A DNA stretch of 64,000 bases from Rhizophagus irregularis (taxonomy: Eukaryota): the NCBI RefSeq assembly GCF_026210795.1, contig NC_089430.1, positions 5,208,001 through 5,272,000 of the forward strand, written 5' to 3'. Positions 9,451-45,989 of the stretch are shown here, piece by piece. Each line of letters starts with the position of its first letter. Positions within the stretch are counted from its first letter, which is position 1. A model generated the notes under the pieces. That model worked only from the letters and a program-made list of their open reading frames with translations. It was not told the DNA's origin and ran no database searches. Both the position numbers and the translations under genes were made by a program.

Positions 9451-10143
9451 TAGGGTGAGACGTCGCCTAATTAATCAAAGCTATGTCAGCAACATTGATT
9501 ATTTTACTATAATCAGATTTTTCATGTTACACGGATCAATTTTTTTTAAATTTTTAAATTTGTCCGTTAAGCAAATTTTAAACGATCACTTTTAACGTAA
9601 AATTAAATTATTTTTGACCAAATAAATTATCAAATAATATGTTTGCTTTTCTTCACGATCATTATCTTCAATATTTTCCTGAATAGCATCATATTAACAA
9701 TTGACACATTTAAAATGTTTCACCGCATGATGAAAACATGGGTTTACCTTCAAATTTTTATGACAAGTCTATAAATGGTTTAAAAACAAAGTTACGTTCA
9801 AATATTTCTCTTTATCATATAAAACTTTAAAGATTTGGTGCTTTATTAGTTCAAATTTTCTTTTAAGCAAATATATCAAATCATTTTTAAAACCTTTGTA
9901 AAAAAAAAAAACGTAATTACTTTGAGATGGCTCTTAAGAACAGTTTTCAACCAAAAGAAAGTTGAAAAATGTACACAATATTCGCAAGAAACTTTTAGAG
10001 TCTTGAGTTTTATTTCATAATAAATTATTGTAAAAAAGTTTATTTAATAAATTTTATAGTTTTGCATAGTATAAAATCTGATTATAGTAATATAATCAAT
10101 GTTGCTGACATAGTTTTGATTAATTAGGCGACGTCTCACCCTA
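9451..10143. mobile_element. Non-autonomous DNA transposon with about 70-bp TIRs and 9-bp TSD (Mutator-like)
   Basis: tagggtgagacgtcgcctaattaatcaaa... and its inverse with 2 mismatches; flanks gtccgtcat / gtacgtcat. Confidence 0.85.
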
Positions 10144-11147: not shown

Positions 11148-14100
11148 TTATTCTATTCTAATTTTTTTTCTTTCACTCTCAGATTCGTTAATTTGACTTA
11201 AAAAATAATTTTTTCTTTTACTCCCTGATTCGCTATTTTGACCTAAGAAAAAAAAAGATTATATAAATTACGAATAAAAAAAACATAAAGTTATTATGCA
11301 AATATTGATACTTACTATCTTCATTAACATTCAATTGAGAAATAGTAGAAATTTGTGAAGATTCTATTTAATAAATTAAGGCTTATTATTAGTATTTCGT
11401 TATAAATTAATAGTTTTAAAGTTATAAGTGGAATATGTACCATTCTCATTAATATTCAACTGAGAAATATTGATTTGACAAGATTCTATTTAATAAATTG
11501 AAATTTTGTTATTAGTATTTTATAAACTAGGTACTAAGACATTACATAAGTATGCTATATACCATAAGTATTAATATTCAATTGGGAAAAGTTAAGTTGT
11601 AAAGATTCTATTTAATAAATTGAAGATTGTTATTAGTGTAATATTGGCTAATTATATTTAAAAGTAACAATACTGTTTATTAATGTTTAATGAATTACTG
11701 TTCGGTTGATTTACATACCTGAAAATTCTCTGCTTATTATATTATCATTTTGTTCATAATAATCATCAGAATTTTTTGGTTCAGGAAGATTATTATAATT
11801 AAGTAATCTACTTGTATAAATAGCTTCTGAATGTGTATTATATGATAAAAATGAATTAGCTGATGTTATACTGCTATTTGATGAATTATTGTTTATTTCT
11901 TCTGCTTCCTTAATTTGTACCTGCAATTCTATTGTTTGTTTATTATTAGATTCATATTGCCATCTAAATAAAATGCTAATTATTTCTTTTGCTATTGGTC
12001 GATTTAATGGATTGGCATCTAAGCATCTTTTAATTAAATGTACAATTAATTGCGGTACTTTAATGTTAAACCTTGGTCTAAGTCCTTTGCAAATTTGTAT
12101 TGCTAAATTATTATCATGGCTTAAATCATAATATGGGGGCAATCCAGAAATTACTTCATACATTATTATACCAAAACTATAAATATCGGCGGCTTTGGTA
12201 TAATTTTGTCCTCTTAAAATTTCAGGAGCTATATAAGGCAATACACCATATATCTTATTTTTCATATCTTCTAATTCATTATAATTTGCAGGTTTACATA
12301 ATCCCATATCAGTTATAGCAGATTTATATTTAAACTTTAATATATTTCCAATATGTAAATCTCGATGAATTAATTCCTTTTCATGAATACATTTAAGTCC
12401 AACAATAATATATTGTAAATATTCAAACATTTTATTCCAATTAAGATTATTATGTTCTTTATCTAAATAATTTCGTAGATTGCCATCTTCTGCATATTCT
12501 AAGACCATCATATAATTTTTCGTTTTTGGATCTTGGGTTATTCCATAAAATCTAACAATTATATTATTATCTGTTTCTACTTTATTATGCAGTATAATCT
12601 ATAATGCAATAAAATATTTTAGTAAAACTAACAATCTAGGGAATGATGATAAAAAATAATAAATTAAGTATCAAATTATTATACCTCATTCATAAATTCT
12701 AATGTAACATTTTTTGAATTGTCCAAACTTTTCAGAGCTATAAACTTATTTTCATTATACCTTTCCCAATTTTGATTTTCACTATCCCATTTAGTAATAT
12801 ATCCATCAATCCAATTTGCTCTATACACTTTGCCAAATCCACCTTTTGCAATATATATGATATCATAAAGTCTATCATAAGGTATCCATTCCAATGCTTC
12901 CTTTACATCTTTATGAGTTGATAGTTGGGTATATTGAATAAATTTATCAATATCATCATTTCCACTAGTCCAATCTATGAATTTCTGTTGAAAGAAAATT
13001 GCATTACATATTTTATTGCACTTTTTACATTTATTATTCAAAGCCATCATATAATTTTTTGTTTCTGGATCCTGAGTTATTCCATAAAGTTTATTAATCT
13101 ATAAATAAATATTTTATTAATAAAAAATTAAAAATTTTGTAATTATATTATCAAATAAAAAATTTATTATACCTCTTTCATAAGTTCTGATGCAATATTT
13201 TTTGAATAATCTAAGTTTTTCAGAATTACATATATATTTTTGTCCTTTCTTATCCAATTTTGATTTTCATTATCCCAACTTACATCTCTTTCATAATAAC
13301 TTATATTTCCATCAATCCAATTTGCACTATATGCTTCATCTTTTGCAATATATTTAATATTATACAATCTATCATAAGGTATCCATTCCAATGCTTCTCT
13401 TACATCTTTATGAGCTGATAACTGAGTATCTTGAATAAATTTATCAATATCATTATTACCACTAGTCCAATCTATGAATTTGTGTTGGAAGTGTATTGTA
13501 TTACATATACTATTACACTTTTTACATTTATTATTGAAAACCATAATATATCTTTTTGTTTCTGGATCTTGAGTTATTCCATAAAATTCACATTCTATTT
13601 TAATCTATAAATGTAATAATACTTATTAGTAGAAATTAAAATATTCAAAATTTTGCTAGATAAGTTTACCATACCTTATTTATAAATTCTAATGTAAAAT
13701 TATTTAAAGTATTTAAGCTATTCAAATTCACAAATATATTGTGGCCTTCTCTATTCCAAATTTGATTTTTATTATCCCAATAACTTATATTTCCATCTAT
13801 CCAATTTGCTCTAAACACTTTGCCAAATTCATCTTCTGCAGTATATTTAATATTATACAAACTATCATAGGGTATCCATTCCAATGCTTCTCTTATATCT
13901 TCATGAGCTAATAACTGAGTATCTTGAATAAATTTATCAATATCATTATTACCACTAGTCCAATCTATGAATTTATGTTGAAAATGAATTGCATTGCATA
14001 TTTTATTGCATTTTTTACATTCATTTTTCAAAACTATCATATAGTTATCTGTTTCTGGATCTTGAGTTATTCCAAAAGGTATATCAATCTATAAATACAA

Positions 14101-15663
14101 ATATATTAATAGGAATTAAAAACTTCAAAATTTTATTGGTATTAAATTATTATACCTCATCATTTGTAAATTTTGTTCTAATATTTTCTAAATTATTTAA
14201 ACTTCTCAGAATTACATCCTCACTTTCATATCTTATACAATTTTTTATCATATTATTCCAATATTTTATTTTTCCATCGATCCATTTTGCTCTATACACT
14301 TTACCAAATTCATTTTTTGCAAAATTATCCAGTCTATCATAAGGTATCCATTCTAATGCCTCATTTACATCACAAGCTGATAGCTGAGTATCCTGAATAA
14401 ATTTATCAATATCATCATTACCACTAGTCCAATCTATAAATTTCTGTTGAAAATGGATTGCATTACATATCTTATTGCATTTTTTACATTTACTATTCAA
14501 AACCATCATATAATTTTTCGTTTCTGGATCCTGAGTCATTCCATAAAATTCATATTCAATTTTAATCTACAAATATTATAAATGTTAGACAACTAAATTT
14601 TAAAATTTTGTTGAGTAATAAGCTTATTAGTAGTATACTACCTTACTTGCAAGATCATATGTAAGATCATTTGAAGTATTTAAACTTTTCAAATTCACAA
14701 ACATATTATGATTGTTTCTTTTCCAATTTTGGTTTTCATTATTCCAGTAAGAATCATTACTTTCATGATTATCTAAGTAATAACTATTGTTATAACCTTT
14801 ATCATAATAGTAACTCTTATAACCTTTATCATAATAACTTATATTTCCATCAATCCATTTTGCTCCATACACTTCACCAATCTCATCCTTTGAAATATAT
14901 TTAATATCAAAAAATCTATCATAAGATATCCATTCTAATGCTTTCTCTACACTATTATGAGCTGATAACTGAGTATCTTGAATAAATTTATCAATATCAT
15001 TATTACCGCTGGTCCAATCTATGAATTTATGTTGAAAATGAATTGCATTGCATATTTTATTGCATTTTTTACATTTATTATTCAAAACAAGCATATAATT
15101 TTTTGTTTCTGGATCCTGAGTCATTCCATAAAATTCATATTCAGTTTTAATCTACAAATGTAATAATATATTAGGAAATAAAATATTTATAATTTTTTAG
15201 GCAATTAATAAGCTTACTAGTATACTACCTTATTTGCAAGTTCAAATATAAAATCATTTGGAATATTAAAACTTTTCAAATTCACAAACATTTTATTGTT
15301 TCTTTTGTTTCTTTTCCAATTTTGGTTTACAATATCCAAATAACTATAACTACTATACCTCATGTATTTACCAAATATATTTTCAACAACCCAATTTGCT
15401 CTATACACTTCACCAAACCCATCCTTTGAAGTATATTTAATATCATAAAATCTATTATAAGGTATCCATTCTAATACCTCTTTAACATTATCATGAGCTG
15501 ATAGCTGAGTATCTTGAATAAATTTATCAATATCATTATTACCACTAGTCCAATTTTTGAAATTTTGTTGAAAACGCGCTGCAAAACATACGCGATTGCA
15601 TTTTTTACATATCTCGATTATCTTGTTAGCATTTGATGGCTTTACTAGCCCAAAAATCTCCAT
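11148..15663 (-). CDS. Multi-module TKL-like protein kinase, gene 1 (about 1242 aa): 6 module exons, kinase C-lobe exon, 3 micro-exons, terminal exon
   Basis: Exons 15663-15229, 15151-14642, 14566-14156, 14088-13675, 13604-13173, 13098-12685, 12598-11719, 11607-11563, 11485-11441, 11363-11316, 11242-11148. All introns are GT..AG and the frame is continuous. Motifs KGGFG, IALK, HRDLHIGN, DMG, APE, DIYSFG. The start codon is uncertain because a possible acceptor lies just upstream at 15681. Confidence 0.88.
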
Positions 15664-15790
15664 GAGCAAGAATTTTACAATCTATTTATAAATTCAGTTT
15701 AAGAAGATAATTAAATATAAAAAAGCTAAAAAAAATTGTGCAGATTAAAAGTTCCGGGATCATATAAATAGAAAGTCAAAATGCAACAAC

Positions 15791-15796: not shown

Positions 15797-17754
15797 ATAT
15801 GATGTCGTGTGGCTTATATTAAGATATCACGTACAATACCAATTGAATTTATGAGTAACGATGATTCTGTTACAGGCAAACGCCGAAACTCGGCCTTAAT
15901 TTTGGTTAAAATTAAAATTCGGCCGAAATTATGACATAATGTCACGTGTCGTTACATTAATTTCCTAAAAAGGCAATTTGTTCCCAGTAGCTACGCGGAT
16001 TTCCTAAGATGGAAATTTCAATGTCGATCATTTTCCTGGCCAGAATCACACCCTAAAAATGGCCAGAATTATACCAATAATTTCGGTCAAATTTCGGACT
16101 AATTTCGGCGGCAAATTTATTTTTGATTGCTACAAAAAAGTTTCGGCCTTGGCCTAAATTACTTAATTCGGCAAGAAACCTTACAGTGAGTGAGTGACAA
16201 CGGCAATTCGTACCAGATCACTGATTCTGTCATACTTTCCATTTTGAAAAAATCAACACGTTCGCCAAATCTTCGACTGTGTTTTGTACGTCAAAAACTA
16301 GCTGCGGAAATGTTTATTGACGATAAACTAATACAAGATTCCAAAACGTTATATGAACGGCAAATATGAAGCATTTTGTATAGGATATAACAAGTATAAA
16401 GTGTAACGACCCTTTATCATCACACCATCGAACAATTAAATATTTTAAATATTGGTCTACAACCAAAAAAATAAAAAGATTCTTTTTATTTTTGAAGCCA
16501 CTCTTTCTAAATGACACATTTGTATATATTTAAAACCTAATTATTTGTTTCAGTATAGATTGATATATAATAATTTATTTAGTTTTTATTAAAGAAAAGT
16601 TATTGTTGTTTTCCATTTTATATTTTTAATTTCTTGTAAACTTGTTTAATTGACATAGCCATGTTTTTCATTTCATTTTTTTTTTTGAAAAAATTCTGTT
16701 CCTGGGTTACTCATTTTACGTTGAATCCGCAATAGAAACATTATAAGGTTTTCAAAAATTTTTGAGACGTTCATTAAAAAATGATCTGCAATCACATGAC
16801 ATATATGTGAATTTTTGTAAATCGGAATCTTTTTTTACTAAAATTTTATTAAACTTTAAAAAATTAAACACCCACTTAAATTTAAATAGTAAATAGTGAA
16901 TAGTAGGATTTATTTTTGTTTAATTTATTAATTTAAATATAAAAATTAAAATATAATGTTAAAATGGATCAACAATATTATTGAGAAGAAAATTATAAAA
17001 TAAATAAAAATTCTTTGCAACTTACTTTATGTAGACATAGTTTCTTCGTAAGTAATATTATATACAGTACATCATATCTAACGCCAATAAAAAATGCATA
17101 AAGTTAAACAACTTCCACCAAAAAAAAGAAATAAACATCAAAAGAAATAAACTTATAATTATATACAAAAAGCTCATACCACTTCTAATTGTTCTATAAA
17201 TTAATTTTCGTCTCTTTTATTAAAAACGCATAAATTTTTATTATCAAATGTTATAATAAATTTTAATAAAAAAAACAATTATTAATTGATAAATCACATT
17301 TTTTCTTCTGAAATAAAATTTTATTAAATAAATACACAACACGTTTTAAAATACCCATTTTATTATTTTTTGCAAAAAAAAACTACTTTATTATTCTTCC
17401 TATTCCTGACTTTTTTCTGCTCTTGTTGCCATTCTTCCTCGTTTCTTTCTAAAGAGCACTTCTTCCCTTTTATGCAATTAGTAGATTCTATATCCTTTTT
17501 TTAGGCGGGTTCGATAACCGTGCTAAACAAGTCGCGTTAATTTGATTATAAACATTTCTCATTTAATGAAAAAAGAACTCTTTTTGATGTATAAGTATGC
17601 AAACATGATATATGTGCCCTTTATATATATATATATTAAAGTCCTATTATATTATATAAGCATGTTCTTGTTTATAATAATAGAAAATCTTAAAAAAATA
17701 ATATAATAAAAAATAGATAATTAATACATTACAAACTATACCTTTTGAATGAAT

Positions 17755-17965
17755 AATTATCTATTCTTAATTTTATTTTTCACTTTTATTTCTATATTTT
17801 TGTCTGTTATTATACAATTTACTATCTTCATCAATGTTCAATTGAGAAATATTAAATATTCTAAATGATTAATTTAATAGTATTTTATAAATTTCGAATT
17901 TTCTTTTTTTTAAAAAAAATGAGTTAATTAATATATATACCAGAAATTTCATCTTGTTGATTTAT
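17755..17965 (-). pseudogene. Remnant 3' end of another kinase paralogue
   Basis: Minus strand shows a ...GAAATTTCTG|gtatat donor near 17941, a frameshifted micro-exon (aatatttctcaattgaacattgatgaagata|gt, about 17823-17860) and an aaaattaagaatagataa terminus resembling genes 1 and 3. Confidence 0.5.
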
Positions 17966-17994
17966 CCTATCGCAACGCAACAGGTTACAGCTAG
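17966..17994 (+). mobile_element. Second Helitron-like 3' terminus
   Basis: cctatcgcaacgcaacaggttacagCTAG|T, near-identical to 7684-7711. Confidence 0.5.
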
Positions 17995-18520
17995 TATATC
18001 AGATTAATTATATCAATTTACGATTGAAGATATTTGACAGGCTCAGATAGTGCCGAGTAAGTGACATAATCTGGATCATAGAACACACTTTTCTAAATCC
18101 TCATAAAGATACAAAGAACAATTGATTACAATCACGTGATATCCTTTGATCACGTAATAAGATTTTTAGCACAAAAAAAAGGGGTCCTATGACTTTGCAT
18201 TATATCACGTACATTACACATACTTTTTCTTGTTTTTTTTGAAATTTTTTTCGTCGCCACCTTACGTGATTGACGTCATTTTCAGCCATTTTGAAAATGG
18301 CAATAATATCATGTACTAAGAACGGTTAATATTATACTTGAAACACTAAGGGAATATTTACAAAGAGCGAAATAAGCTATAGGTAATAAAAATCATTGAA
18401 AAAAATTATGATAATCAATAATCGATAATAATATTAACTTCACTTCGCCCATCAAATAACAAAAAAATTTCGAAAAACAAAACAAGTCATTTTTAAAAAA
18501 TTGTTCAAGCAACAATCAAA

Positions 18521-18590
18521 ATTAATCAAACAATCATCACTATCAGTCAAGTCAGTTATCATTGTTTCTTCTGAAGTAACTTTAATGAAA
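18521..18590 (+). pseudogene. Decayed paralogue of the CaaX peptide gene
   Basis: att aat caa aca atc atc act ... gtt atc att gtt tct tct gaa gta act aligns with atg aat cca aca att att acc ... att gtt att gtc act tcc gaa gta aca. ATG has become ATT, there is a 1-nt frameshift, and the CaaX end is deleted (joins directly to a taatgaaattt 3' flank). Confidence 0.6.
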
Positions 18591-19701
18591 TTTATTTACA
18601 TTGACCTAACGCTATAATGAAGATTTAAATTTTCTTAAACGATTTTATAGAATAAATCGACTTACATTTTTTAATTTAAATTTTTTCAAAGATTACTTTT
18701 TAATAAATCTTTGTAAAATTTAAAATTTTAGATACTCCTGAATATCAGTTCAACCGTTTATATAATATTTGTATATAATATTTTTTTTGATTTTATTACC
18801 AATAAATAAAATAAAAGTTTTTTTAATTTTACATAAAAATAAATTTCTAATTTTTGTTAAACTTGTTATAAATTACTTCAGACGATTAATATTATTTTTT
18901 ATTCTGTAATTTGTAAATTTTATTAATTTTTCCTCATTATCTCGAAATAATAATATTATTATTTAGTTATTATTTTCCCCAGAAATATATGCGATTTTAC
19001 TTTTTACGTAGCGTTAGAATATCAATTAACAAAAAGATTTATCAGTTATTGAATATATTTATTGTAATACATAGTAATTATTTTTGAATTTCATTTGTTT
19101 TCATTGTAAGATTTATTTCAAAATAAAATATTATCGTTATCACACAGAGATGTATCATGACAATGAATGTAGGCTAGTTTCAAATTATGCACGAACGTAT
19201 ACAAATAAAGTTAAATTTAAAAAGCCTAAAAATATTGTTCTAACTAAAAATATTAATTTGTGCTGACGTTATATACTTGTCAATTTACTTATATGGGAAT
19301 ATGGCTGATTGTAACACATGATGACATGAAATAATATTGCTAAATAAGTTTATACCAATCTTTAAATGATTTCTTAAAAAAGGATATACCAGATCTAATG
19401 GTTTAAAACTTTGAAACATTAGGGAGAATATCAAAAACGAAACAATGCGATGTATAAGGAGGAAATAATAATGAAAAATGAATTACATAATAAGAAACAA
19501 TATAAATTATGTAAAATTTTAATTTTCCACGATGATAATAATTATTTTAAACGCCTAAAATTTGTTTGTTCGATTTATTATAAATACACTTTTGCTTCAC
19601 CTCATCAAAAAAAAAAAATTCAGAGAACAAAAAAAGAAACTAATCAAGTTAATCAAAAATCAAACAAATATTAAATTCTCAAAATTCTTTCTCAATCAAT
19701 A

Positions 19702-19803
19702 ATGAATCCAACAATTATTACCTCTAAACCAATTGTTATTGTCACTTCCGAAGTAACAGAAAAGCCTGATGGCAATCCTACAAACTCATGTTCTATAATG
19801 TAA
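19702..19803 (+). CDS. 33-aa CaaX-terminated peptide MNPTIITSKPIVIVTSEVTEKPDGNPTNSCSIM, candidate prenylated lipopeptide (pheromone-like) precursor
   Basis: ATG at 19702 in aataATG context, TAA at 19801-19803, C-terminal CSIM. TATAAATA at about 19579 followed by an A-rich leader. A decayed paralogue at 18521 differs at many synonymous sites. Below the ORF-track size cut-off. Confidence 0.65.
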   Translation: MNPTIITSKPIVIVTSEVTEKPDGNPTNSCSIM

Positions 19804-21273
19804 TGGAAATTTCTTCTATGAACGACGGTACAAACGACTTCGGTTATTACATGGAAAAACCTACGAAGATCAATTTTAACCGAAAAAATTATACTTAATA
19901 ATGAAGTTACTATTCGTTGCAAAAATGCCTGGTGCTATTATTTTTATTAAATTTGTTCATAATAACTTGTTTGTATTTATCATAAAAAAAGTGTCTTTGT
20001 AATTTAAAATTTTATTTGTAATCTTTATATTTTTGTATATTTTTGTATATTTTTATTTACTCGTTTATTAAAATAATAAAATGGAAATTTTTTGATTTTA
20101 CATAATTTACTAATTATAAATTATCTAAACATCCTTTTGCTACGCTTCAATTTTCCAAAAACTCTATTTTTCATTAAAATAAAAATGATGCAATTATTTT
20201 TATTTACAACTAGCCATGTGATCAACTCCTTAAAAAAATGCTATTTTAATCATCATTGATCCGTCGAGAATATTGATTTTTAACAATAGTAAATATTGTA
20301 TATTGTTAATTGTTGTACAACATGTACAACGGGAATATTAATCAGTCATCCCGCTCCCACTTATTAATCACTGTCACATCCCTTCGCATTTCCATAATCC
20401 AAGTAGGTAATACGGAAAGTAGTATAGTAGGATCGGCTTGCTGAAGTAACGTACACAGTAGTAGTATTGCAAATTATACAATAATATATGTATAACAAAA
20501 AATCACTATGTAATACAATAATAATCAGTCGATCAATATTTCTTTGCCAATAAGGGAAATATTATTTATGGAGAAGTTCTTAAGATAAAATTTTATGTGA
20601 AAATCTATAACACAAAATTAGATAATAAAAAATTTTATAATATAGGCAAGTAATATATTCTCACCTGATATGGAAGTTACAGAAATACATATTACAAAAA
20701 ATGAGAATATACCTAATTGAGAACGTTTCCTGCCTGTAATGTTCCATTTCATTCCTATTATATTTTTCTAGACGTAACTTATGTATTTAGTATGTAAGTA
20801 CTTAAAGTAAATTTTTTATATATTGAAATATAATTTTTAATATATTGATTATTAATTTCCATTTATTGAAAAGTCTGCATATATCTCATCAAGACAATAT
20901 TTTTAGGAAAAAATATTTTAATTGAAACTTTTTTGAAAGTATTGGTAACCATTTTTACAAACATTAGATTCCAGAATTTTTTACTCTATAGTCTTTAGAC
21001 GCGTTGACTTAAACTCTAACGTTAAAAAAAAAATAAAAAAAACTAAAGGGTATTAGGCATGTTGAACTACTGGACAGTTCAGCTTTTTTTTCACAATTGA
21101 TGAATTTTTTTATTGGGTTATAATTGGCCAAAATCCTGTAGCGAGTGTAGCCTCAGCGTATTATCTTCAATATTTTGGTTTGACCTTATTGATTATCGCC
21201 AAAAAAGTGAATCTTGTTAAAGTATATTTAAACTTTTCGTAATGTGCCGGATTATAATGGAGATCTTATCATA

Positions 21274-21508
21274 CCGCACTGATTGAGATACTCTGAGTCT
21301 TATACAGAAAACCTGGTTCAAAAATTGAATAATACCTGAGGTATTTTGTGAGGGGTACAATATAATTTTTACCCGAATTAAGCTTAAGTTATCAGAATTA
21401 AGGAGGTATTAATTGAAAGTAATAAAATTTTGTATCTAGTAAAATTCCGAGCCTAGGTCTTATAAATGGGGTATTCTCAAAGGGAGTATCTTAATACAGT
21501 AAGTGCGG
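21274..21508. mobile_element. MITE with TA flanks
   Basis: ta|ccgcact..attgagatactc ... gagtatcttaat..agtgcgg|ta imperfect TIRs. Confidence 0.55.
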
Positions 21509-23939
21509 TACGGTATTTGTTAAACAATTATCTTTTTATATTGTTAGAGACGATATAATAGATATAGAAAATATTTAATATTTGCTGGGACTCACCATAT
21601 TGTTTCTTTATTGGTGCACGTCTACTATTGTAAATGAGATAAAAATAGAATTGGACTTGCACTTGAATTAATTGGGATCACGTGATTAATGTTTGGCCGA
21701 CATTATTTGTAATTCTATTCTTCTTCCGAACTGGGCAAAATTATGGAGTATTTTTTGGCCCACACTTTGACTTAAAAAAATTTTGGTTTAAGTGTTACAT
21801 ATCATACCATACATTATAACTTTTATAAAATTTTGATAAATCAACAATGTTAAACTCTAATTTAAAATAAAAAGAAGTCTCATTCAATTGAATATAGGAT
21901 GTGATAGCTTTTTTTTACTATATTTGGAACGACCTTAATTGTTTATTTTATTTTTTTTATATAGTAAACTATTGTGATGAGTGGCTCATACACTCGTACT
22001 ATAATTAATTTTTTGAATTTCGTTGACTTAGTTATTAGTTTGCAATTTATGTAATAGTAGATAACATAAATATGAAACTTTCTAGTTTAATTGCAAAATA
22101 GAGGGTGAGGTTAGATTCTATCAAAATTTGTATAAATGTATGTGAAGACAGAGTGAAAGTGGAAAGTTAAGTGTTCAAACCAATATTTATTTTAAACTTG
22201 TATGATAAACTTCTTTCTTACAAGTTTGAGTGATTATTTAATGCCAAATAAACTAATGGCATCAATTCATTGTAAGATTTTATTTTTATATATATTAATT
22301 TCATTAATTGTTAAATTTTATATAAAGTTTATTGAATATACAATAATTCAATTATTTAAATGTTCTTTGTTTTTCAGATAAATATAAGAAAATTGTAATT
22401 CTAAAAAAAAAAAATCAAATTTAAAATCATAGCAGTTATTAAATAATATTACAATAAAAATTTAAATAATACATGAAAATTTTATATACTATGATATTTG
22501 ATAAAAACTTTTTAATTGTTTTACTTTTGGATTTTACAACTGTTTTATCTGACTTATAAATTATCATCATCAAGGAATATCAATCTGTTGAGAAATACGA
22601 ATCTTTTTTAATAAACTAAAAATAATTAATATCTTATAAGTCAATATTTTTTTAAATCATGGATTATTAATTAATACCTAAACATTTCTTGCCCATTATA
22701 TTATTATATTTTCGATTGTAATCAATACGGTGTAACCTACGTAATATATTGTAAGTGCTTATTAAATCTTAATAGCCGAAGTTATTTGACTTCATACTCA
22801 ACTATAATTTGTTAGAGCTAACGTGCTTTAGATTCTCCAATAGACTTATACAAATCGAATACTGTTGGGTTCGTAATGCACTTCCTAATTAACTGAAAAA
22901 GAAGTCATTTATTTCTTTGAAAGAACAGAGAGTGAATGATCACTAAGAATAAGAAGAACTGTCATGAATGACAAGAAGAAATGTAAGAAGTGATTCTTCA
23001 ACAAGCTGATAATATACTATAAATTGTAGAAAAGAAAAATATTATTGAAATGAAATGGATGATTTGGTAGTAGAAGTTATTTAATTTGGTACTCAACTAT
23101 TATTTGTTAGAGTGAAACCATCCGTAAGTTATTTTTTTATTTAAATCATTATTTTATTTCAAAGAATTGAAGAAAAATTGTATTTAATTAATACATTTAG
23201 TTTTTTCCAAAATAAATGATTTTTATGTTTCTTCAACGTATTTAAATAAGCTTTCATTACTATGTCATATTAAATACATTTTGACTAGACGTAACCAAAA
23301 TTATAAATTATGGTCAAATAATAAACTAATATAATTTATGAGTTTAACTATATAAATTATCTAACTAAATATACGAGTATGAGCACAGTTACATAAATTT
23401 AACAATTACTAGCAAAAGTAAATTTGAATGGGTTTGAAAATTCACTTCTAGCTATTTGTCTTTTCTATTTTACAAACTATAGTAAACTAAATAAAAATTT
23501 TCAGTTTCAAATAAACATTAAAACAATAAAAAGATCCTTTCGCATAAAATCTGCTAAAAGGACCATTTTTTTCTGTTGTGAAAATAAATGACTTATTTTT
23601 TCAAAATATACACTAACGGCATAAAAGGCCTTTGTAATTAAAAATTTACATATAATACAATATTTTAAATATAAAATATAAATCAATAAAAATTTATTTG
23701 TTCAATAAATATAAAAATATAAATATAATTTAAACAAAGAAATTCTATTTAATGTTTATTTTTATCCCTACTTAGTAAATAACATTCCAATTTTGATATA
23801 TTTTTAAAAAAAATTCGCAACTCAATTACAGAAAAGTAAAAGAAAAGTAATAATCTACTGAATAAGATTTTAAAAAACTAGAATGCTAGATAAATTTAAA
23901 TTTTACCACATCAATCCAATTTACAATTTAGAATCATAG

Positions 23940-26900
23940 CTATCTATCTATTTGTGAAATATCAATTTTAGAAATATCAATTAGTTGAGAAATATCAGTT
24001 TGTTGAGAAATATCAATTTGTTGAGAAATACCAATTTGCTGTGATTCTTTTTAATTAAATGAGATATAATTAATATTAATTTTTCAAAAATAAATAAATA
24101 AATAAATAAAATTATTAACCAATACCTGACAATTCCTTGCTTATTATATTATCATTTTGTTCATAATAATCATCAGAATTTTTTGGTTCGGGAAGATTAT
24201 TAAAATTAAGCAACCGACTTATATAAATAGCTTCTGAATGTGTTTTATATGATATACCTAAATTACTTATATTTATATTACCATTTGGCAAATCATTATT
24301 TATCTTATCTGCTTCTTTAACTTGGTTTTGAATTTCCGCTTTGCCATAAAACAGTTCAAATTTCCATTTATCTAAAATTCCTTTAATTTCAGCTGCTGTT
24401 GGTCGCTTTAATGGATTTGCATCTAAACATCTTTTAATCAAATGCACAAGTAATTGTGGTACTTTAATATTAAACCTTGGCCTAATTCCTTGGCAAATTT
24501 TGATTGCTAGGAATTCATCATGACTTATATCATGATATGGAGGTAATCCAGAAATTACTTCGTACATAATTATACCAAAACTGTAAATATCAGATGCCTT
24601 AGTATAATTTTGTCCTATTAGAATTTCAGGAGCTATATAAGGTAAAATACCATATATATTTTTCTCTGAATTTTCCGATTTATTATAATCTGCAGGTTTA
24701 CATAACCCCATATCTGTTATTACAGTTTCATCTTCAAACTTTAATATATTACCAATATGCAAATCTCGATGGATTAATTCCTCTTCATGAATATAACTAA
24801 GTTCAAATGCAATATCATATAAGTTACTAATCCTATCAATCCAAACTAGATTTTTATGATTTATATCCAAATAATTTCGTAAACTCCCGTATTCTGCATA
24901 GTCTAAAACCATAATATAATTCTTTGATTCAGGATCCTGAGTCATTCCATAAAATTTAATAGCTTTATAATTGGAATTTATTTTATGATGTAATATAGCC
25001 TGTATAAGATGCAAAATAAAATATTACGATATGAATTTAAATTTTCATTAAATAATTAATTAATTAAAATACCTCATTCATAAATTCCAATGAAATATTT
25101 TTTGAATTATTTAAACTTTTCAGTGCTACTAACATATCTTTATTATATCTTTTCCAGTCTTGATTTTCGTTATCCCATTTTTCTATAGGTCCATCAATCC
25201 ATTTTGCTTTATAAACCTTAGCAAATCCACCTTTTGCAATATATTCAATATTATTAAATCCATCATAAGGAATCCATTCTAATGCACTCGATAATTTACT
25301 AGCTGTATGTGCTAACAGCTGGGTATCTTGAATAAACTTATCAATATCATTATTACAACTAGTCCAATATTCAAAATTTCTTTGAAAATGTTGCACATTA
25401 CACATATAATTACATATTTCACAGCTATCACTTAAAATTATCATAAAATCTTTTGTTTCAGAATCTTGAGTTATTCCATAGAATTTGTAATTTTTTTTAA
25501 TCTGTAAATATATTATTAATATATCAATAAAATTAATAATTTTTATAAAATTTAAATAACAAATTAATCATTACCTCATTTATAAATTCTTTTGTTATTT
25601 GTTTTGAATTATTTAATGTTTTTAGTATTACAAACATATTTTTATTAGATCTTTTCCAATTTTGGTTTTCATTATCCCATCTTTCTATATATCCATCAAT
25701 CCAATTTGCTTTATACATTTTGCTAGATTCATCATTTGCAATAAATTTAATATTATAAAATCTACCATAGGGTATCCATTCTAATGCTTCCTCTATATTA
25801 TAATGAGCTGATAGCTGAACATCTTGAATAAATTTATCTATTTTATTATTACCACTAGTCCAGCTTTCAAAATTATGACAAAAGTGAATTGCATTACATA
25901 TTTTATTACATATATTACATCTATTACTCAAAACCATTAAATAATCATTTGTTTCTGTATCCTTAGTTATTCCATAAAATTCGTGTATTATTTTAATCTA
26001 TAAATATAATGTGTTAGAGAAAATAAATACTTATAATTGAAAAAAAGATCATCATACCTTATTTGTAAATACTAATGTAAGATGTTCTGAAACATTTAAA
26101 CTCTTCAATCTCACAATCATATTATGATCTCCTCTTTTCCAATTTTGATTTTCATTATCCCAGTATCTTATATTTCCATCAATCCAATTTGCTCTATACA
26201 CTTTGTTAAATCCATCTTTTGAAATAAATTCAATATTGTAAAATCTATCGTAAGTTATCCATTCAATTGCTTTTAATACTTCATAATTATTAGAATGCAT
26301 TGATAACTGAACATCTTGAATAAATTTATCTACAACATGATTACCACTAGTCCAATTGCTAAAATTTTGTCGAAAATGTATTGCAGCACATATATAATTA
26401 CATTTTTTACATATAATATTCAAAACAACAAAATAATTTTTTGTTCCTGGATCCTGAGTTATTCCATAACATTCATGATATATTTTAATCTACAAACGTT
26501 ACATTATATTAGTAAAAATTACAAATTTTATTGAATAATCTTACTTATTATACCTTATTTATAAATTCTGATGTAAGATTGTTTGGAGTACCTAAACTTT
26601 TCAACTTTACAAACATATTAAACATATTAGGATTGCTTCTTTCCCAATTTCGATTTACATAATTCCAACTTTGAAAATTCGATATATAACCATCAATCCA
26701 ATTTGCTCTATACACTTCACCAAAATCATCTTTTGAAATATATTTAATACCATAAAATCTATAATAAGGTATCCATTCTAATACTCCCCTCAAATCATCA
26801 TGAGCTGATAACTGAGTATCTTGAATAAATTTATCAATATCATCATTACCACTAGTCCAATCTATAAATTTCTGTTGAAAATAAATTACATTACATATTT

Positions 26901-29900
26901 TGTTACATTTTTTACATTTATTATTCAAAACAACAAAATAATTTTTTGTTCCTGGATCCTGAGTTATTCCATAACATTCGTGATATATTTTAATCTACAA
27001 ACGTAACATCATATTATTAGTAAAAATTACAAATTTAATTGAATAATCTTACTTATTATACCTTATTCATAAATTCTAATGTAAGATTGTTTGAAGTACC
27101 TAAACTTTTCAACTTCACAAACATATTATGATTATCTCTTTCCCAATTTTGATTTACACAATCCCAATATTCCATATTTCCATCAATCCAATTTGCTCTA
27201 TACATTTTACCAAACTCATCTTTTGAAATATATTTAATATCATAAAATCTATCATAAGGTATCCATTCTAATACATTATTTATTTTATAGAATGTATGTG
27301 CTGATAACTGAGTATCTTGAATAAATTTATCAATATCATCATTACCACTAGTCCAATCTATGAATATATGTTGAAAATGAATTATATTACATATATTATT
27401 ACATTTTTTACATTTATTATTCAAAACCATTATATAATTTTTTGTTTCTGGATTCTGAGTCATTCCATAAAATTTATATTCCATTTTAATCTACAAATGT
27501 AATAATATGTTAGAAAAATAAAACTTTAAAATTTTGTTGAGTAATAAACCTATTAGTATGCTACCTTATTTGCAAATTCAAATGTAAGATCATTTGGAAA
27601 ATTTAAAATTTTCAAATTCACAAACATATTAAGATTATCTCTTTTCCAATTTTGACTTACATAATCCCAATATCCCATATTTCCATCACTCCATTTTGCT
27701 CTATACACTTCACCAAACTCATCTTTTGAAATATATTTAATACCATAAAATCTATCATAAGGTATCCATTCTAATGCCATTTCTGCATTACCATGAGCTA
27801 ATAGCTGAGTATCTTGAATAAATTCATCAATATCATCATTACCACTAGTCCAATCCATAAATTTCTGTTGAAAATGAGTTGCATTACATATTTTATTGCA
27901 CTTTTTACATTTACTATTCAAAACCATCATATAATTTTTTGATTCTGGATCCTGAGTTACTCCATAAAGTTTATGGCTAAATTTAACCTACAAATCAAGC
28001 AATATATAAATAAATATTAATTCTTCAAAATTTTAATAAATAACCTATTATACCTTATTTATAAATTCTAATGTATGATTGTTCAGAGTATCTAAACTCT
28101 TCAAATTCACAAATATATTAGGATTGCCTCTTATCCAAAATTGATTTTCATTATCCCAATATTCTATATTTCCATCAATCCAATTTGCACCATACACTTT
28201 ACCAAACTCATTTTTCGCAAAATCATACAATCTATAATAAGGTATCCATTCTAATGCTTCCTCTACATTATTATGAACTGACAGCTGAATATTTTGAATA
28301 AATTTATCAATATTATCATTACCACTAGTCCAATCTATGAATATATGTTGAAATTGAATTGCATTACATATACTGTCACATTTTTTACATTTATTATTCA
28401 AAACCATCATATAATTTTTTGTTTCTGGATCCTGAGTCATTCCGTAAAATTCATATTCAATTTTAATCTAAAAATATAATAATATATTAGAAAAATAAAA
28501 TTTAAAATTTTATTGAGTAATAAGCTTATTGGTATATTATACCTTATTTGCAAATTCTAGTGTAAGACTGTTTGGAGAAATTAAACTTCTCAAATTCACA
28601 AATATATAAAAAATGTTTCTTTCCCAATTTTGATTTTCAATATCCCAATACTTTATATTTCCATCAATCCAATTTGCTCTATATACTTTACCAAACTCAT
28701 CTTTTGAAATATATTTAATATTATACAATCTATCATAAGGTATCCATTCTAATGCCATTTCTGCATTATCATGAGCTGATAGCTGAGTATCTTGAATAAA
28801 TTTATCAATATTATCATTACCACTAGTCCAATTTTCGAAATTTTGTTGAAAACGTATTGCATAACATATACAATTATTACATTTTTTACATTTATTATTC
28901 AAAACCATCATATAATTTTTTGTTTCCGGATCCTGAGTAATTCCATAAAATTTATATTCAATTTTAATCTGCAAATGTAATAATATGTTAGAAAAATAAA
29001 ATTTTAAAATTTTGTTGAGTAACAAGCTTATTGGTACTATATTATACCTTATTTGCAAATTCTAATGTAAGATTATTTGGAGTAATTAAAATTTTCAAAT
29101 TTACAAACATATTAGGATTGTTTCTTTCCCAATTTTGACTTTCATTATCCCAACTTCCATAATAATCTATATTTCCATCAACCCAATTTGCTCTATACAC
29201 TTCACCAAACTCATCTTTTGAAGTATGTTTAATATCATATAATTTATTATAAGGTATCCATTCTAATGCTTCCTCTAAATTATTATGAGCTGATAGCTGA
29301 ATATCTTGAATAAATTTATCAATATTATCATTACCACTAGTCCAATTTTTGAAACTTTGTTGAAAATGCAATACATGACATATGCGATTACATGTTTTAC
29401 ATTTATTATTCAAAACCATTATATAATTTTTTGTTTCTGGATCCTGAGTCATTCCATAAAATTCATATTCAATTTTAATCTACAAATGTAATCATAGGTC
29501 AGAAAAATAAAATTTTAAAATTTTGTTGTGTAATAAGCTTATTAGTATACTACCTTATTTGCAAGTTCAAAAAATGTAAGGTCATTTGGAGTATTTAAAC
29601 TTTTCAAATTCACAAACATACCAAGATTGTATCTTTTCCAATTTTGATTCACATAATCCCAACTTCGAAAATTTGATATATAACCATCAATCCAATTTGC
29701 TCTATACATTTCACCAAACTCATCTTTTGAAATATATTTAATATCATAAAATCTATCATAAGGTATCCATTCTAAAACTCCCCTCAAATCATTATGAGCT
29801 GATAACTGAGTATCTTGAATAAATTTATCAATATCATCATTACCACTAGTCCAATCTATAAATTTCTGTTGAAAATAAATTACATTACATATTTTGTTAC

Positions 29901-32470
29901 ATTTTTTACATTTATTATTCAAAACCATCATATAATTTTTTGTTTCTGGATCCTGAGTCATTCCATAAAATTCATGTTTAACACTGATCTACAAATGTAC
30001 AATATATTAAAAAAAATAAAGTATTTAAAATTATTAATTAAACTTATCATACCTTAGTTACAAGTTCAAAAGTAAGATCATTTGGAGCATTTAATCTTTT
30101 CAAATTCACAAACATATTAGGATTGCTTCTTTCCCAATTTCGATTTACATAATTCCAACTTCGAAAATTCGATATATAACCATCAATCCAATTTGCTCTA
30201 TACACTTCACCAAACTCATCTTTTGAAATGTATTTAATACCATAAAATCTATCATAAGGTATCCATTCTAATACTCCCTTCAATTCATAATGAGATAATA
30301 ACTGGGTATCTTGAATAAATTTATCAATATCATGATTGCTGCTAGTCCATTCATTGAATTTATGTTGAAAATGAATTACATAACATATACTGTCACATTT
30401 TTTACATCTATTATTCAAAACCATCATGTAATTTTTTGTTTCTGGATCCTGAGTTATTCCATAAAATTCATATTCAATTTTAATCTACAAATGTAATAAT
30501 ATGTTAGAAAAACAAAATTTTAAAAGTTGGTTGAGTAATAAGCTTATTAGTATGCTACCTTATTTGCATGTTCAAATGTAAGGTCATTTGGAAAATTTAA
30601 ACTTTTCAAATTCACAAACATATTAAGTTTATCATTTTTCCAATTGTGATTTACATGATTCCAATATCTCAGATTTCCATCAATCCAGTTTGCTCTATAC
30701 ATTTCACTAAACTCATCTTTTGAAATATATTTAATATCATAAAATCTATCATAAGGTATCCATTCTAATACTTCCCTCAAATCATCATGAGCTGATAACT
30801 GAGTATCTCGAATAAATTTATCAATATCATCATTTCCACTAGTCCAATCTATAAATTTCTGTTGAAAATGACACATTTTATTGCACTTTTTACATTTATT
30901 ATTCAAAACCATCATATAATTTTTTGTATCTGGATCCTGAGTCATTCCATAAAATTTATATTCAATTTTAATCTACAAATAAATGTAATAATATGTTAGA
31001 AAAATAAAATTTTAAAAGTTTGGTGAGTAATAAGTTCATTGGTATATTACTTTATTTGCAAGTTCAAATGTAAGATCATTTGGAGAATTTAAACTCTTCA
31101 AATTTACAAACATATCAATATTGGTTCTTATCCAATTTTGATTTAAATTCCAATAACTATAATTTTTATATTCTGTAACATATTTGCTATTTATTTTTAT
31201 TTTTCCATCAATCCAATTTGCTCCATACACTTTACCAAACTTATCTTTTGTAATGCATTCAATATTATGCAGTCTATCATAAGGTATCCATTCTAATGCT
31301 TTATTCACATCATAATGAGCTGATAGCTGAGTATTTTGAATGAATTTATCAATATTATCATTACCACTTGTCCAATCTATAAATTCCTGTTGAAAATGAA
31401 CCACATTACATATTTTGTTGCACTTTTTACATTTATTATTCAAAACTATCATATATTTTTTTTTTTCTGGATCCTGAGTTATTCCATAAAATTCATGTTC
31501 AACCCTAATCTACAAATGTACAAAATGTACAATATATTAAAAAAAAAATAAAATATTTATAATTGTTAATTAAGCTTATCATACCTTATTTGCAAATTCA
31601 AATGTAAGATCATTTGGATTATTTAAACTTTTCAAATTCACAAACATATTAGGATTGTTTCTTTCCCAATTTTGATTTACATAATTCCAACTACGAAAAT
31701 TTGATATATAACCGTTAATCCAATTTGTTCTATACACTTCACCAAACTCATCTTTTGAAATATATCTAATATCATAAAATCCATCATAAGGTATCCATTC
31801 TAATACTCCCCTTACATCATCATCATGAGCTGATAACTGAGTATCTTGAATAAATTTATCGATATCATCATTACCACTAGTCCAATCTATAAATTCCTGT
31901 TGAAAATGAATCACATTACATATTTTATTGCACTTTTTACATTTATTATTCAAAACCATCATATAATTTTTTGTTCCTGGGTCCTGAGTCATTCCATAAA
32001 ATTTGTATTCAATTTTAATCTAAAATGTAATAATATGTTAGAAAAATAAAATTTTGAAATTATGTTAAGCAATAAGCTCGTTAGTATACCTTATTTGCAA
32101 GTTCAAATGTAAGATCATTTGGATTATTTAAACTTTTCAAATTCACAAAAATATTAAAAATGTTTCTTTCCCAATTTTGATTAGCATAATTCCAATATTT
32201 TATATTTCCATCAACCCAATTTGCTCTATACACTTCACCAAACTCGTCTTTTGAAGTATATTTGATATTACAAAATCTATCATAAGGCATCCATTCCAAT
32301 GCTTTATTCATTTCATAATGAGCTGATAGCTGAGTATCTTGAATAAATTTATCAATATTATCATTACCACTAGTCCAATTTTTGAAATTTTGTTGAAAAC
32401 GTATTGCATAACATATACGATTACATTTTTTACATATTTCGTATGGCTTAACTAGCTCAAAAGAATCCAT
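23940..32470 (-). CDS. Multi-module TKL-like protein kinase, gene 2 (about 2461 aa): 15 module exons, kinase C-lobe exon, repeat tail exon
   Basis: Module exons 32470-32090, 32019-31585, 31509-31051, 30972-30559, 30484-30053, 29988-29554, 29479-29048, 28968-28543, 28467-28054, 27987-27565, 27490-27062, 26994-26554, 26489-26058, 25997-25575, 25501-25073; kinase exon 24999-24126; tail exon 24046-23940. Open frame throughout; KGGFA/VALK/HRDLHIGN/DMG/APE. Confidence 0.88.
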
Positions 32471-32479
32471 GAGCAAAAA

Positions 32480-35400
32480 TTTTGCAACCTATAAATAAAT
32501 TCAGTTTTAAGAGGATAATTAAATATAAAATGGCCAAAAAATTTTGTGCAGATTAAAAGTGAAAAAAGTATTGCTTCGTTCCAAGATTATATAAATAGAA
32601 AGCCAAACATGTAACAATCACGTGTAATGCATATCATGTGACTTACATTAAAGAAATCACGTACATCATTGTAATGCCGGCTGGATTTGTTGAATATCAA
32701 TTGAATTATGTATACGGTCTTGAAGAAAGATGTATGGAGCTGGTCCTTCACAAATTCAAGCTCTTCCACAACAAAAAATTATCGAAATAGTTCTTTAGTT
32801 TACGTATTTCCAGCGCAGTAAAAGTAAATACTATTACACAGAATTCTTGGCAAATGACGATTTGCTACTTCAATGCATAATAATTATGTGCTGCAAAGCA
32901 CAACTTTCCGGAATAAGCGCAGCAATTGCACAAGGTTACTGACTCTGTCACACTTTTCATTCGAAAAAATCATTCGTTTATTTTCGGAAGGCTGTTTTTG
33001 TACGTCAAACAATTAACTGCGGAAATGACTATTTTCGTTATATGAGTGGCGAAGTACGTTGTGATAGGATATACAAGTGTAAAGTGTAACCAATCCTTTA
33101 TCGTCAAATAAACAATCAAATATTGATATAGGACCAAAGAAATAAATTTTTAAATAACACCTATTGTATATATTTTAATACCTAGGATCTTTTTCATGAT
33201 AGATGGATACTATATAATATATTAATTATTTTATTAAGATAAAAGTCATTGTTGTTTTTCCAATTTATCCTTTTAAATTTTTCGGTAAAAAAATTGTTTA
33301 ATCGAATACCCGCGTTATTATTATTCACTTGCTTTTTTTTTACTTGAAAAAAAAATTCTTTTTTGTGTTCTTTAATAAAACCCGAAGAAAAAACCTGGTT
33401 TCGTTTATATTTTCCACTTAAGTTTAGGTCACTTTTTCTGGGTCCATGAAACCGTAGTAAAAATATTTAATAAAATAAGTAAGGTCAAAAATTTTAACGG
33501 AAATAGGCTTTTTTCTTCTTACTTATTCTTATCATGTATAAATAATCAATATTATATTTTATTTTAATTTATTTACTTCCCATGATCCCATCCAATGAAA
33601 AAAAAATCTTTTTATTTAAGTACCGTTATGTATACATACCATTTTTATATATTTATACAAGTCTTATTGTAAAGCATGTTTTTGATTAACCAAAATATCG
33701 ACATTTTTTTTTTTCTTTTCCAATGTAGTACAAGAAAATAAATAAAATAGTAGCAAGCAAAAAGGAGAAATTAATAATTGGTTTTTTTATCTCATAGAAA
33801 AAAGAGCGTTGAAAAAGGACTTTCTGAAAAAAAAAAATAGTAACAATTGTAATAGTAATAGTAAATCAATAAAATTCCTAAAAAGGGATGTAATTGATGT
33901 AGCAAAAAAAAATAAAAACTATCCGCCGAATTGCATATCATCAATGAAACATACTGTACTAACAATTATAAGTAATCATTATTATCAAAATTTATAATGA
34001 AGTTGTCAAAAGAACGATGTGGGTAAGTCAAGTGATATATATTTGTGAGACGTACGTGAGAGATTATTTCTTATTATTTATTTGGTGGAGTTATTGTTTC
34101 ACAAAAAAATTGAAAAATTCAAACGCGCGAAAGGCCGGGCGGTTTATTTTTTATTTTAAAATAGTTAATTTTATTTTTCTTTTAGAAAAAAAATTTTTTG
34201 TCAAGGATATAAAAAAAGCAAAAAGATATTCTAATATTCAATTTTTTGAAATTATGATTATATTTCTTTTTTGCGAAATCAATCAGGGACTTAGAGGTTT
34301 TTTTATTTTTCACTACAATTATATGTTTTATACTTTTAGTTTTACGTGTCTCTACCTTTCATTTTTAAAATAAATAAAGTGTATTTTTCCCACAAAAAAA
34401 GAAGAAATTTTGTTTACATTGATTGTCTTTCCTTTTTATTATTATTATTACTATCACTTATTATTATTTTTTAATCTTATTATTATTCATTCATTGGAAA
34501 TAATAATAAAAACAATAATAAAAATAACATTTGATAAATATCATTAGGAAACTTAATATCAACTAACATGAGGAAATCTTAAAATCAAGCGGTCTTTTTT
34601 TTATGAATGACAAATCTTTTAAAAATTTTGTGGTTTAGTTAAGTTAATTTTCGGTGAGAATCGGTTTGCTTTAGTTCGTTTTGGATTATCGAATTTATTT
34701 TGATCTTTTTTTTTTTGATATAAAAAAGAAAATTTTCTTCTTGCATCAGAATTGCCAAAAAATTCAATAGACCAGAGTTTTTAACTTAATTTGTTTTTGT
34801 TCGATAAAAATGATGATAAAGTACATTTTTTATTTTAAAGTTTCGTAATGCGCTTTTAATCATGATAAAGTAACTACGCTAGAAGTCACTGTTTTACAAC
34901 CTGGACCGGTACTATATCAATTTTGTATAAAAACAAAAAAATCGGCCAGCTTAATTTCGGCCAAAATTAAGTCGATTTTGGCCAGAATTACGAAAATCAG
35001 GGTTTAACGAAAAATCATGCGCCGGCCTGGACGAATTTTGAAAGAAAATTTCCGGCCCAAACCGGATCCGGGCCGGGTTTCCGGGTCCCGGGTCCCGTAT
35101 GCAGGCTTCTACCAATCGACCAATTGTTAATCAAATCATGAGAACGTGATTAGCAGTAATTGATTTGAAAAATTTCCATGCGGAAAACAAAAAAGAGATT
35201 GTAAATATTCCTATATTTTCTATTAAAAAAAAAAATTATTGAATTTCTTCATGTAATAACGATAAAATGATTTATTATTTTTTTTAAAAAAAAGGATAAA
35301 AAAAAAATTCGTACAATTTTTTAAGAAATATGTAAAAAAGAATCCAATGAATAATAATAAAATAGTATAAAAAGAAAAACAAATAAGAAAAAATTCCTAT

Positions 35401-45900: not shown

Positions 45901-45976
45901 GAATTGCGTTACATCTATAATTACATTCTTTACATATCTCGTAACCATCCGGCTGAACTAGCCCAAAAGAATCCAT
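39918..45976 (-). pseudogene. Multi-module TKL-like kinase, gene 3: 9 module exons, kinase exon, 4 micro-exons, terminal exon; disrupted as written
   Basis: Module exons 45976-45560, 45490-45059, 44981-44562, 44497-44078, 44003-43563, 43488-43033, 42962-42525, 42454-42038, 41965-41544; kinase exon 41462-40607; micro-exons 40491-40447, 40374-40330, 40253-40209, 40135-40088; last exon 40012-39918. In-frame TGA at 44155-44153 and a 1-nt deletion near 41925. Confidence 0.75.
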
Positions 45977-45989
45977 GAACAAGAATTTT

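Follow-up and report, generated by a model that had tools for sequence, protein, structure and literature searches.

The window, that is, the whole 64,000-nucleotide stretch of DNA that was analysed, has a G+C content of 24% and carries on its forward strand a short gene whose reading frame ends in a CaaX box. The features of this gene and its flanks are as follows.

19412-19418, + strand: TGAAACA, by consensus match a presumed Ste12 pheromone-response element; a weak lead
19496-19501, + strand: AACAAT, upstream of the TATA box, which we take to be an HMG-box-type site; a possible regulatory element
19579-19586, + strand: TATA box TATAAATA, 123 nt before the ATG
19600-19701, + strand: A-rich 5' leader, start approximate; an X1 contig covers it from 19622, plus 24 letters further upstream, and contigs are unable to fix the transcription start site
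19702-19803, + strand: precursor ORF of 33 codons, MNPTIITSKPIVIVTSEVTEKPDGNPTNSCSIM-TAA, with the C-terminus CSIM, from the ORF scan, contigs, paralogs and homologues
19702-19758, + strand: pro-region, aa 1-19, rich in Ser/Thr and beta-branched residues, no signal peptide, variable between paralogs
19759-19791, + strand: predicted mature core E20-C30, EKPDGNPTNSC, from the likeness between tandem cores of relatives; T19 is an alternative N-terminus
19789-19800, + strand: CaaX box CSIM, the box in 38 of the 42 terminal Cxxx ends of the family as gathered by CSIM-seeded search
19798-19805, + strand: AT/GTAATG, last codon and stop, resembling a 5' splice donor in sequence context and in gene-model counts
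19804-20113, + strand: 3' UTR; AATAAA at 20075, poly(A) added after 20100 and after 20113, from contigs

Elsewhere in the window, three kinase genes lie on the minus strand (11711-15700, 24115-32490 and 40599-45994), each with a C-terminal Tyr/Ser-Thr kinase domain preceded by many tandem kinase-N-lobe-like units of ~125-150 aa that start with CxxC. Each unit sits on its own exon-intron repeat of ~500 nt, and one 155-nt repeat occurs in 30 copies in all. A ~120-nt tandem repeat family is found just past the 3' ends of two of these genes (11310-11663 and 40082-40547), with an isolated fragment at 17817-17860, and a MITE-like pair of 71-nt inverted repeats (9451-9521 and 10073-10143, 97% alike) is separated by 551 nt. 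Pfam matches are to a cytochrome P450 (3436-5146), a PB1-domain protein with a 9-nt tandem repeat (53322-54419), an NAD kinase (55501-56187) and a non-LTR-type retroelement with RT and RNase H (60653-63999); a weak Peptidase_M13 fragment lies at 2639-2839.

The initial annotation had proposed a TATA box, an A-rich leader and a CaaX-ending frame at this locus, and re-reading of the sequence finds TATAAATA, the leader and the ORF all present as claimed; the acid-base pair said to begin ten residues before the cysteine is likewise in place (E20 against C30). The 33-residue product is short (<100 aa) and lacks a signal peptide, its longest apolar run being four residues. A CaaX-ending small ORF is by itself not beyond chance, because strict CaaX ends occur in 2 of the 524 small ORFs of the window (Cys at -4 in 15/524) and shuffled sequence yields a mean of 0.45 per shuffle, with 4 of 40 shuffles reaching two; the CaaX end was accordingly rejected as evidence in its own right. 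The ORF is lifted above chance by poly(A)-ended contigs, by paralog likeness confined to the ORF, by a family that extends across arbuscular mycorrhizal fungi (AMF) and by purifying selection. Two overlapping frames, an upstream ORF of 74 aa (19450-19674) and a downstream ORF of 36 aa (19788-19898), were rejected as the true gene since the paralog likeness is confined to 19694/19701-19803. The 33-codon ORF is a genuine gene, and it belongs to Rhizophagus irregularis or to a species closely related to it.

Twenty-four sequencing runs were listed, none of them recorded as RNA; the stretch is present in 20 of the 24, from nine studies, and eight runs were aligned. Contigs from two studies cover the gene and leave its flanks uncovered, are unspliced through the stop and finish in a non-templated poly(A) end. 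Over 17500-22500, depth peaks sharply at the gene in each of three small contig sets (8-31 million letters), which reach 11, 11 and 18 of 30 bins, whereas a DNA-sized set (197 million letters) reaches all 30 bins of this interval. One contig of run X1 equals 19775-20113 with no mismatch or gap and then continues into 22 A; a contig of X2 reaches 20100, followed by 14 A, and the genome has no run of A at either 20100 or 20113. Since the poly(A) runs are non-templated and AATAAA stands at 20075, the locus yields polyadenylated RNA, unspliced across the stop. Two X1 contigs (19714-19802 and 19775-20113) pass over the stop without gap or mismatch, and splicing at the terminal GT was therefore rejected as the normal product. 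Transcription, the first check proposed for the candidate, is thus borne out by polyadenylated contigs at the locus in X1 and X2, from runs not recorded as RNA, and the span of 19579-19803 first given to the gene holds for the leader and the ORF, with the transcript running further, to 20100/20113. Contig depth is a poor measure of abundance, differing about a thousand-fold between X1 and X3 of one study, and four same-study runs with next to none of the gene's words are uninformative.

Many other contigs match 19694/19701-19801/19803 alone; they differ in 7-14 letters, have gaps totalling 0, 3 or 6 letters and diverge into different UTRs beyond the ORF, and some have TGA in place of TAA. The substitutions listed for four further runs all fall within 19724-19773, and 19774-19800, the N-P-T-N-S-C-S-I-M codons, has none; the indels of paralog records are net in frame. 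The D23 codon is missing from a common variant. Alleles or mixed strains could account for some of the versions; three differing gene models are present in the single sequenced strain DAOM197198. The DAOM197198 models, the paralog variants and the homogenised two-core precursors described below together make this a multi-copy gene with a conserved core and a variable pro-region. Among six metagenome loci fetched, four hold intact single-core genes, one a stop-loss copy that reads CSIM-Q (L001, 115-348) and one a contig with two decayed copies (L006, ~480-600 and ~1290-1410), of which one lacks the leader and the ATG just past the TATA box and the other lacks the ATG and the CaaX box. The decayed and stop-loss copies appear to record the birth and death of family copies. 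In two R. irregularis models, P0008 and P0054, a sense piece of the family is joined with one or two antisense translations, which correspond to the minus-strand frame of the window, so copies are clustered in both orientations on the 9.7-kb and 44-kb contigs concerned. P0005 and P0061 are neighbours on a 16-kb contig and have a differing core, EKPAQPTNSC, under the same species label. At L002 and L004 the family genes adjoin kinase genes, one with Sel1-like repeats, which probably reflects the abundance of kinases in AMF genomes and not linkage.

A phmmer search against 1.84 billion representatives gave 11 matches, the best three being R. irregularis DAOM197198 models (88-94% identity) in which the peptide stands at the start and is followed by unrelated tails. 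Three profile searches enlarged the family to 79 database proteins; the family statistics refer to the 77 (31 named genome models and 46 unnamed calls) gathered before the last search. Every named member is a hypothetical protein of an AMF, from Glomerales and Diversisporales: R. irregularis, R. clarus, Diversispora epigaea, D. eburnea, Acaulospora colombiana, Cetraspora pellucida, Gigaspora rosea, G. margarita, Dentiscutata erythropus and Racocetra persica, plus one weak match in Entrophospora (E 9.4) that shows TEKP...TNYCS. These profile searches, 5-mer-seeded and confined to gene calls, returned no named relative outside AMF and, needing shared 5-mers and gene calls, no member from Paraglomus, Archaeospora, Ambispora or Funneliformis. 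The exact window peptide has no match in a collection of 15 billion sequences, the ESM Atlas gave no usable match for it or for a two-core relative, and Pfam gave none for 22 members, bar one E 0.13 match to a disordered repeat.

Single-core relatives measure 29-35 aa from the conserved MNP start. The searches were seeded with the CSIM end, which favours members that keep it, and the position of the stop was not in the query; a Cxxx end is found in 37 of the 46 unnamed calls, the terminal Cys being missing in nine. The pro-region motif K-P-[IV]-V-[IV] is well conserved in Glomeraceae-type members and replaced by Thr runs in Diversisporales. For six coding sequences, pN/pS comes to 0.195 over the eight final codons and to 0.273 over the 12 codons that run up to TExP. 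Nucleotide identity among five loci is 88% across the 27 nt that close with the stop and falls to 30% across the following 27 nt. The family is under purifying selection, and its homologues keep the ATG, the frame and the terminal CaaX with a core middle that varies between species, the pattern the initial annotation had anticipated. By its sequences the family is real, not previously described and a-factor-like by design, its function being predicted.

A pattern search found 82 cores in the 77 proteins; 11 proteins gave none, yet two of these, P0070 and P0076, end in Cxxx. The cores share the frame T-E-x-P, a variable middle and [P/A/L][T/V]N-x-C, with the Glu 8-12 residues before the Cys and T-E-x-P nearly invariant, so that the full family frame reads T-E-x-P...N-x-C-S-I-M. 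The middle differs by species, as in EKPDGNPTNSC (window), ERPLKPTNQC (R. clarus) and EKPDGGDPTNYC (D. eburnea), and no sign of mating-type-specific cores was seen within one strain. The residue pair at the core Glu is EK in 55 of the 82, EQ in 12, ER in six and another pair in nine, an acid-base pair (EK or ER) thus being present in 61 and absent in 21. The conserved feature at the cleavage site first predicted is T-E-x-P, and EK itself is only partly conserved. The Axl1-type Asn rule fits poorly, N25 not being conserved and the conserved N28 lying just two residues from the Cys.

Sixteen of the 77 proteins, Glomeraceae-like and Diversisporales members alike, have two cores within a single ORF, P0005 possibly as the spliced product of adjacent genes; the window gene has one core. 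The tandem units agree in 15-16 of 16 at Thr, Glu and Pro, against 5-10 of 16 upstream of position -2, and since the likeness sets in from Thr, we infer that the mature N-terminus lies at T19 or E20, giving a peptide of 11-12 residues. In 10 of the 16, both cores of the precursor are the same from Glu to Cys. The internal CSIM is followed by AR, AK, SR, YK, HS or YT and a new pro-segment, with no Kex2 site. Two-core forms imply proteolytic release, because an uncut internal CaaX cannot be prenylated.

A Cxxx end is present in just 5 of the 31 named genome models versus 37 of the 46 unnamed calls (Fisher p 2e-8), and ten proteins break exactly at CSI or CSI+I, as expected from splicing at the terminal GT. 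Splicing gene callers usually overrun the stop, probably because they read AT/GTAA as a donor, and the CaaX box is thereby hidden. This is likely a systematic annotation error, in which the Met-TAA end is taken for a splice donor and the CaaX is stripped from gene models. The accessible text of PMC10282164 states that pheromone-type genes also have developmental roles and are often absent from annotations.

The promoters of family genes are alike as well. TATAAATA stands at -103 to -146 in all five loci with enough flank (window, L001, L003, L004 and L005), against a background of 3.2% for a TATA box at equal distance from the 977 ATGs of the window. The 100 nt before the TATA box contain AACAAT or ATTGTT in all four loci with enough flank, compared with 14% of background 100-nt windows, the four loci being related and so not independent. 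TGAAACA-type sites lie upstream in three of four loci, namely the window, L003 (-283) and, on the opposite strand, L005 (-344), and are absent in L004. These motifs make it possible that the family genes are controlled by the expanded HMG-box factors of AMF.

In Saccharomyces cerevisiae the a-factor precursors (MFA1/MFA2) are about 33-36 aa long. Like the a-factors of Saccharomycotina, the AMF precursors are of similar length, lack a signal peptide, end in CaaX and are multi-copy with a conserved core and a variable pro-region. Unlike them, they have a polar and Pro-rich core, share no sequence similarity and fit the Axl1-type rule poorly, and to our knowledge no mating-type-limited expression has been described for the AMF family. 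The filters for yeast a-factors in the available text of 10.1101/2021.09.28.462209 are a CaaX end, a length under 100 aa, multiple copies, a conserved core and an Asn cleavage rule; the AMF gene passes those for CaaX, size, copy number and core. Mushroom pheromones have 11-13 residues according to the portion of PMC7288658 at hand, and the predicted farnesyl-methyl peptide resembles in this the B-locus pheromones of Agaricomycetes (Coprinopsis, Schizophyllum, Lentinula phb). The acid-base pair at the core start, which PMC3068285 in its accessible part calls essential in C. cinereus, occurs in the 61 AMF cores noted above, and the polar first 'a' residue of C-S-I-M fits the CPAX consensus given there. 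In contrast, each unit of the AMF precursors measures some 24-35 aa, less than the 53-72 aa of the Agaricomycete ones, and the copies in one strain share nearly one core, unlike the multiallelic Agaricomycete sets. Linkage to STE3, by which basidiomycete P/R loci are recognised, was not found in the 64-kb window: none of its 82 stop-to-stop pieces of at least 62 aa, a size that short exons could escape, has a Pfam match to STE3 or an ABC transporter. Tandem cores in some members recall rhodotorucine A (Rhodosporidium toruloides RHA), whose precursors have CaaX-like spacers between the cores (PMC3068285, same part), and the h-type Hpp1 of Hypocreales; the design is shared by part of the family (16/77) and not by the window gene, and unlike these two systems AMF members have one or two cores and no Kex2 site after the internal CSIM. 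Human prelamin A, a known farnesylation substrate, has the same box, CSIM (PMC7948416, in its accessible part); the protein is unrelated and supports the chemistry alone. The KEX2-processed, alpha-factor-like repeat proteins (KEPs) of R. irregularis, proposed as peptide signals in the available text of PMC6339444, have signal peptides, Kex2/STE13 sites and no CaaX and form a separate class.

The best reading of the family, with a probability of roughly 0.68, is a farnesylated, exported a-factor-type ligand for the Ste3 receptor of AMF. By established CaaX biochemistry, C30 of the CSIM precursor would be farnesylated, SIM removed and the new terminus carboxymethylated. By analogy with known precursors, a cut at or just before T19/E20 would release the peptide of 11-12 residues, two-core forms would need an additional cut after the internal CSIM, and the mature lipopeptide would be exported by Ste6 and bind Ste3, which it would probably activate during recognition between hyphae. 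The predicted farnesylated, methylated peptide has a computed monoisotopic mass of 1378.68 as E20-C30 and 1479.73 as T19-C30. A single reported STE3 and cores that are nearly the same throughout a strain make it likely that the signal acts at the species level or is self-compatible. In bipolar mushrooms, pheromone and receptor no longer have mating-type specificity. The AMF signal could likewise serve in partner finding or in development before or after fusion; the choice of mating type would then lie with the homeodomain locus. The aaX protease is expected to be Rce1, because ZMPSTE24 cuts CSIM poorly in the accessible data of PMC7948416. Of the machinery that the initial annotation asked for, STE3 and STE6 orthologues are reported in Rhizophagus by the available text of PMC3834313 (2013), with one copy of STE3 and no peptide pheromone gene found; RAM1, STE14, STE24 and RCE1 are not mentioned in its searchable text and supplement. 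STE3 is the one GPCR family that is generally conserved across fungi according to the accessible part of 10.1101/546531. From these likenesses we infer a pheromone role for the predicted lipopeptide.

The same sequences could also encode a farnesylated, membrane-anchored microprotein that stays uncut inside the cell and uses the V-I-V stretch and TExP as a binding surface. The processing of the precursor is itself a prediction, the pro-region is under purifying selection too (pN/pS 0.273), and Glomeraceae-type members retain K-P-[IV]-V-[IV] well; yet Diversisporales have Thr runs where the hydrophobic stretch should be, the internal CSIM of two-core members would have to be cut free before it could be prenylated, and within a precursor the cores have become alike while the spacer differs. 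Size, multi-copy state and a variable middle also fit the pheromone precursors described in the available text of 10.1101/2021.09.28.462209, and such a microprotein seems unlikely. An ORF that has its CaaX end by chance, in a mobile repeat or a non-coding transcript, would agree with the 0.45 strict CaaX ORFs per shuffle and with the decayed copies of L001 and L006. It is effectively refuted by selection at the codon level, likeness that stops at the stop codon, indels that are net in frame, the exchange of TAA for TGA, which leaves a stop in place, and conservation of the protein from one order to another.

It is improbable, too, that an exported lipopeptide has its target elsewhere, be it the plant host, the hyphosphere, endobacteria or a non-Ste3 fungal receptor. 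The gene is unlinked to STE3 in the window and the family is found only in symbiotic AMF, a restriction that may merely reflect the reach of the 5-mer-seeded search. Partner-induced expression is not seen in the single dataset checked: the accessible part of PMC7490403 names no pheromone gene among those that co-inoculation induces, and neither GBC47988 nor GBC27686 stands in its induced lists, where the positive control GBC53331 is present. Those lists hold induced genes only, and the two entries are mis-extended models of a multi-copy gene. Against another target stand the orphan Ste3 and Ste6 reported in the same fungi (PMC3834313, available text), and species-variable cores in a fixed frame would fit fungus-fungus recognition better than a broad-host symbiosis signal. 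An a-factor-type ligand for Ste3 is thus preferred.

The AMF, widespread symbionts of plants, have no observed sexual cycle and are not known to have been stably transformed; Mucorales use trisporoids. No CaaX pheromone precursor of AMF was found in the literature searched, which is thin on subscription papers, and an earlier print report is possible. The view that the lineage has no characterised peptide pheromones agrees with this search, in which no ligand gene was found by PMC3834313 or in later work, in the portions available. PMC6339444, in its accessible part, offers just Kex2-type candidates for R. irregularis and holds that little is known of pheromone chemistry in early-diverging fungi; the available parts of PMC8778642, PMC4136793 and PMC6455062 hold nothing decisive on AMF pheromones. 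We think it somewhat better than an even bet that the family is the missing AMF Ste3 ligand and the first lipopeptide pheromone outside Dikarya, spread over at least two, probably three, AMF orders with species-specific cores.

For AMF genomes, in which an orphan a-factor receptor and exporter are reported and the ligand was explicitly not found (PMC3834313, available text), the family provides a concrete candidate ligand. A defined lipopeptide of 11-12 residues can be synthesised, which makes the long-open ligand question directly testable without AMF genetics. The family bears on when peptide pheromones arose in fungi: if the reading is true, the a-factor/Ste3 system predates the split of Mucoromycota and Dikarya, and a synthetic molecule would be at hand with which to set off partner recognition, hyphal fusion or the sexual cycle that has never been observed in AMF.
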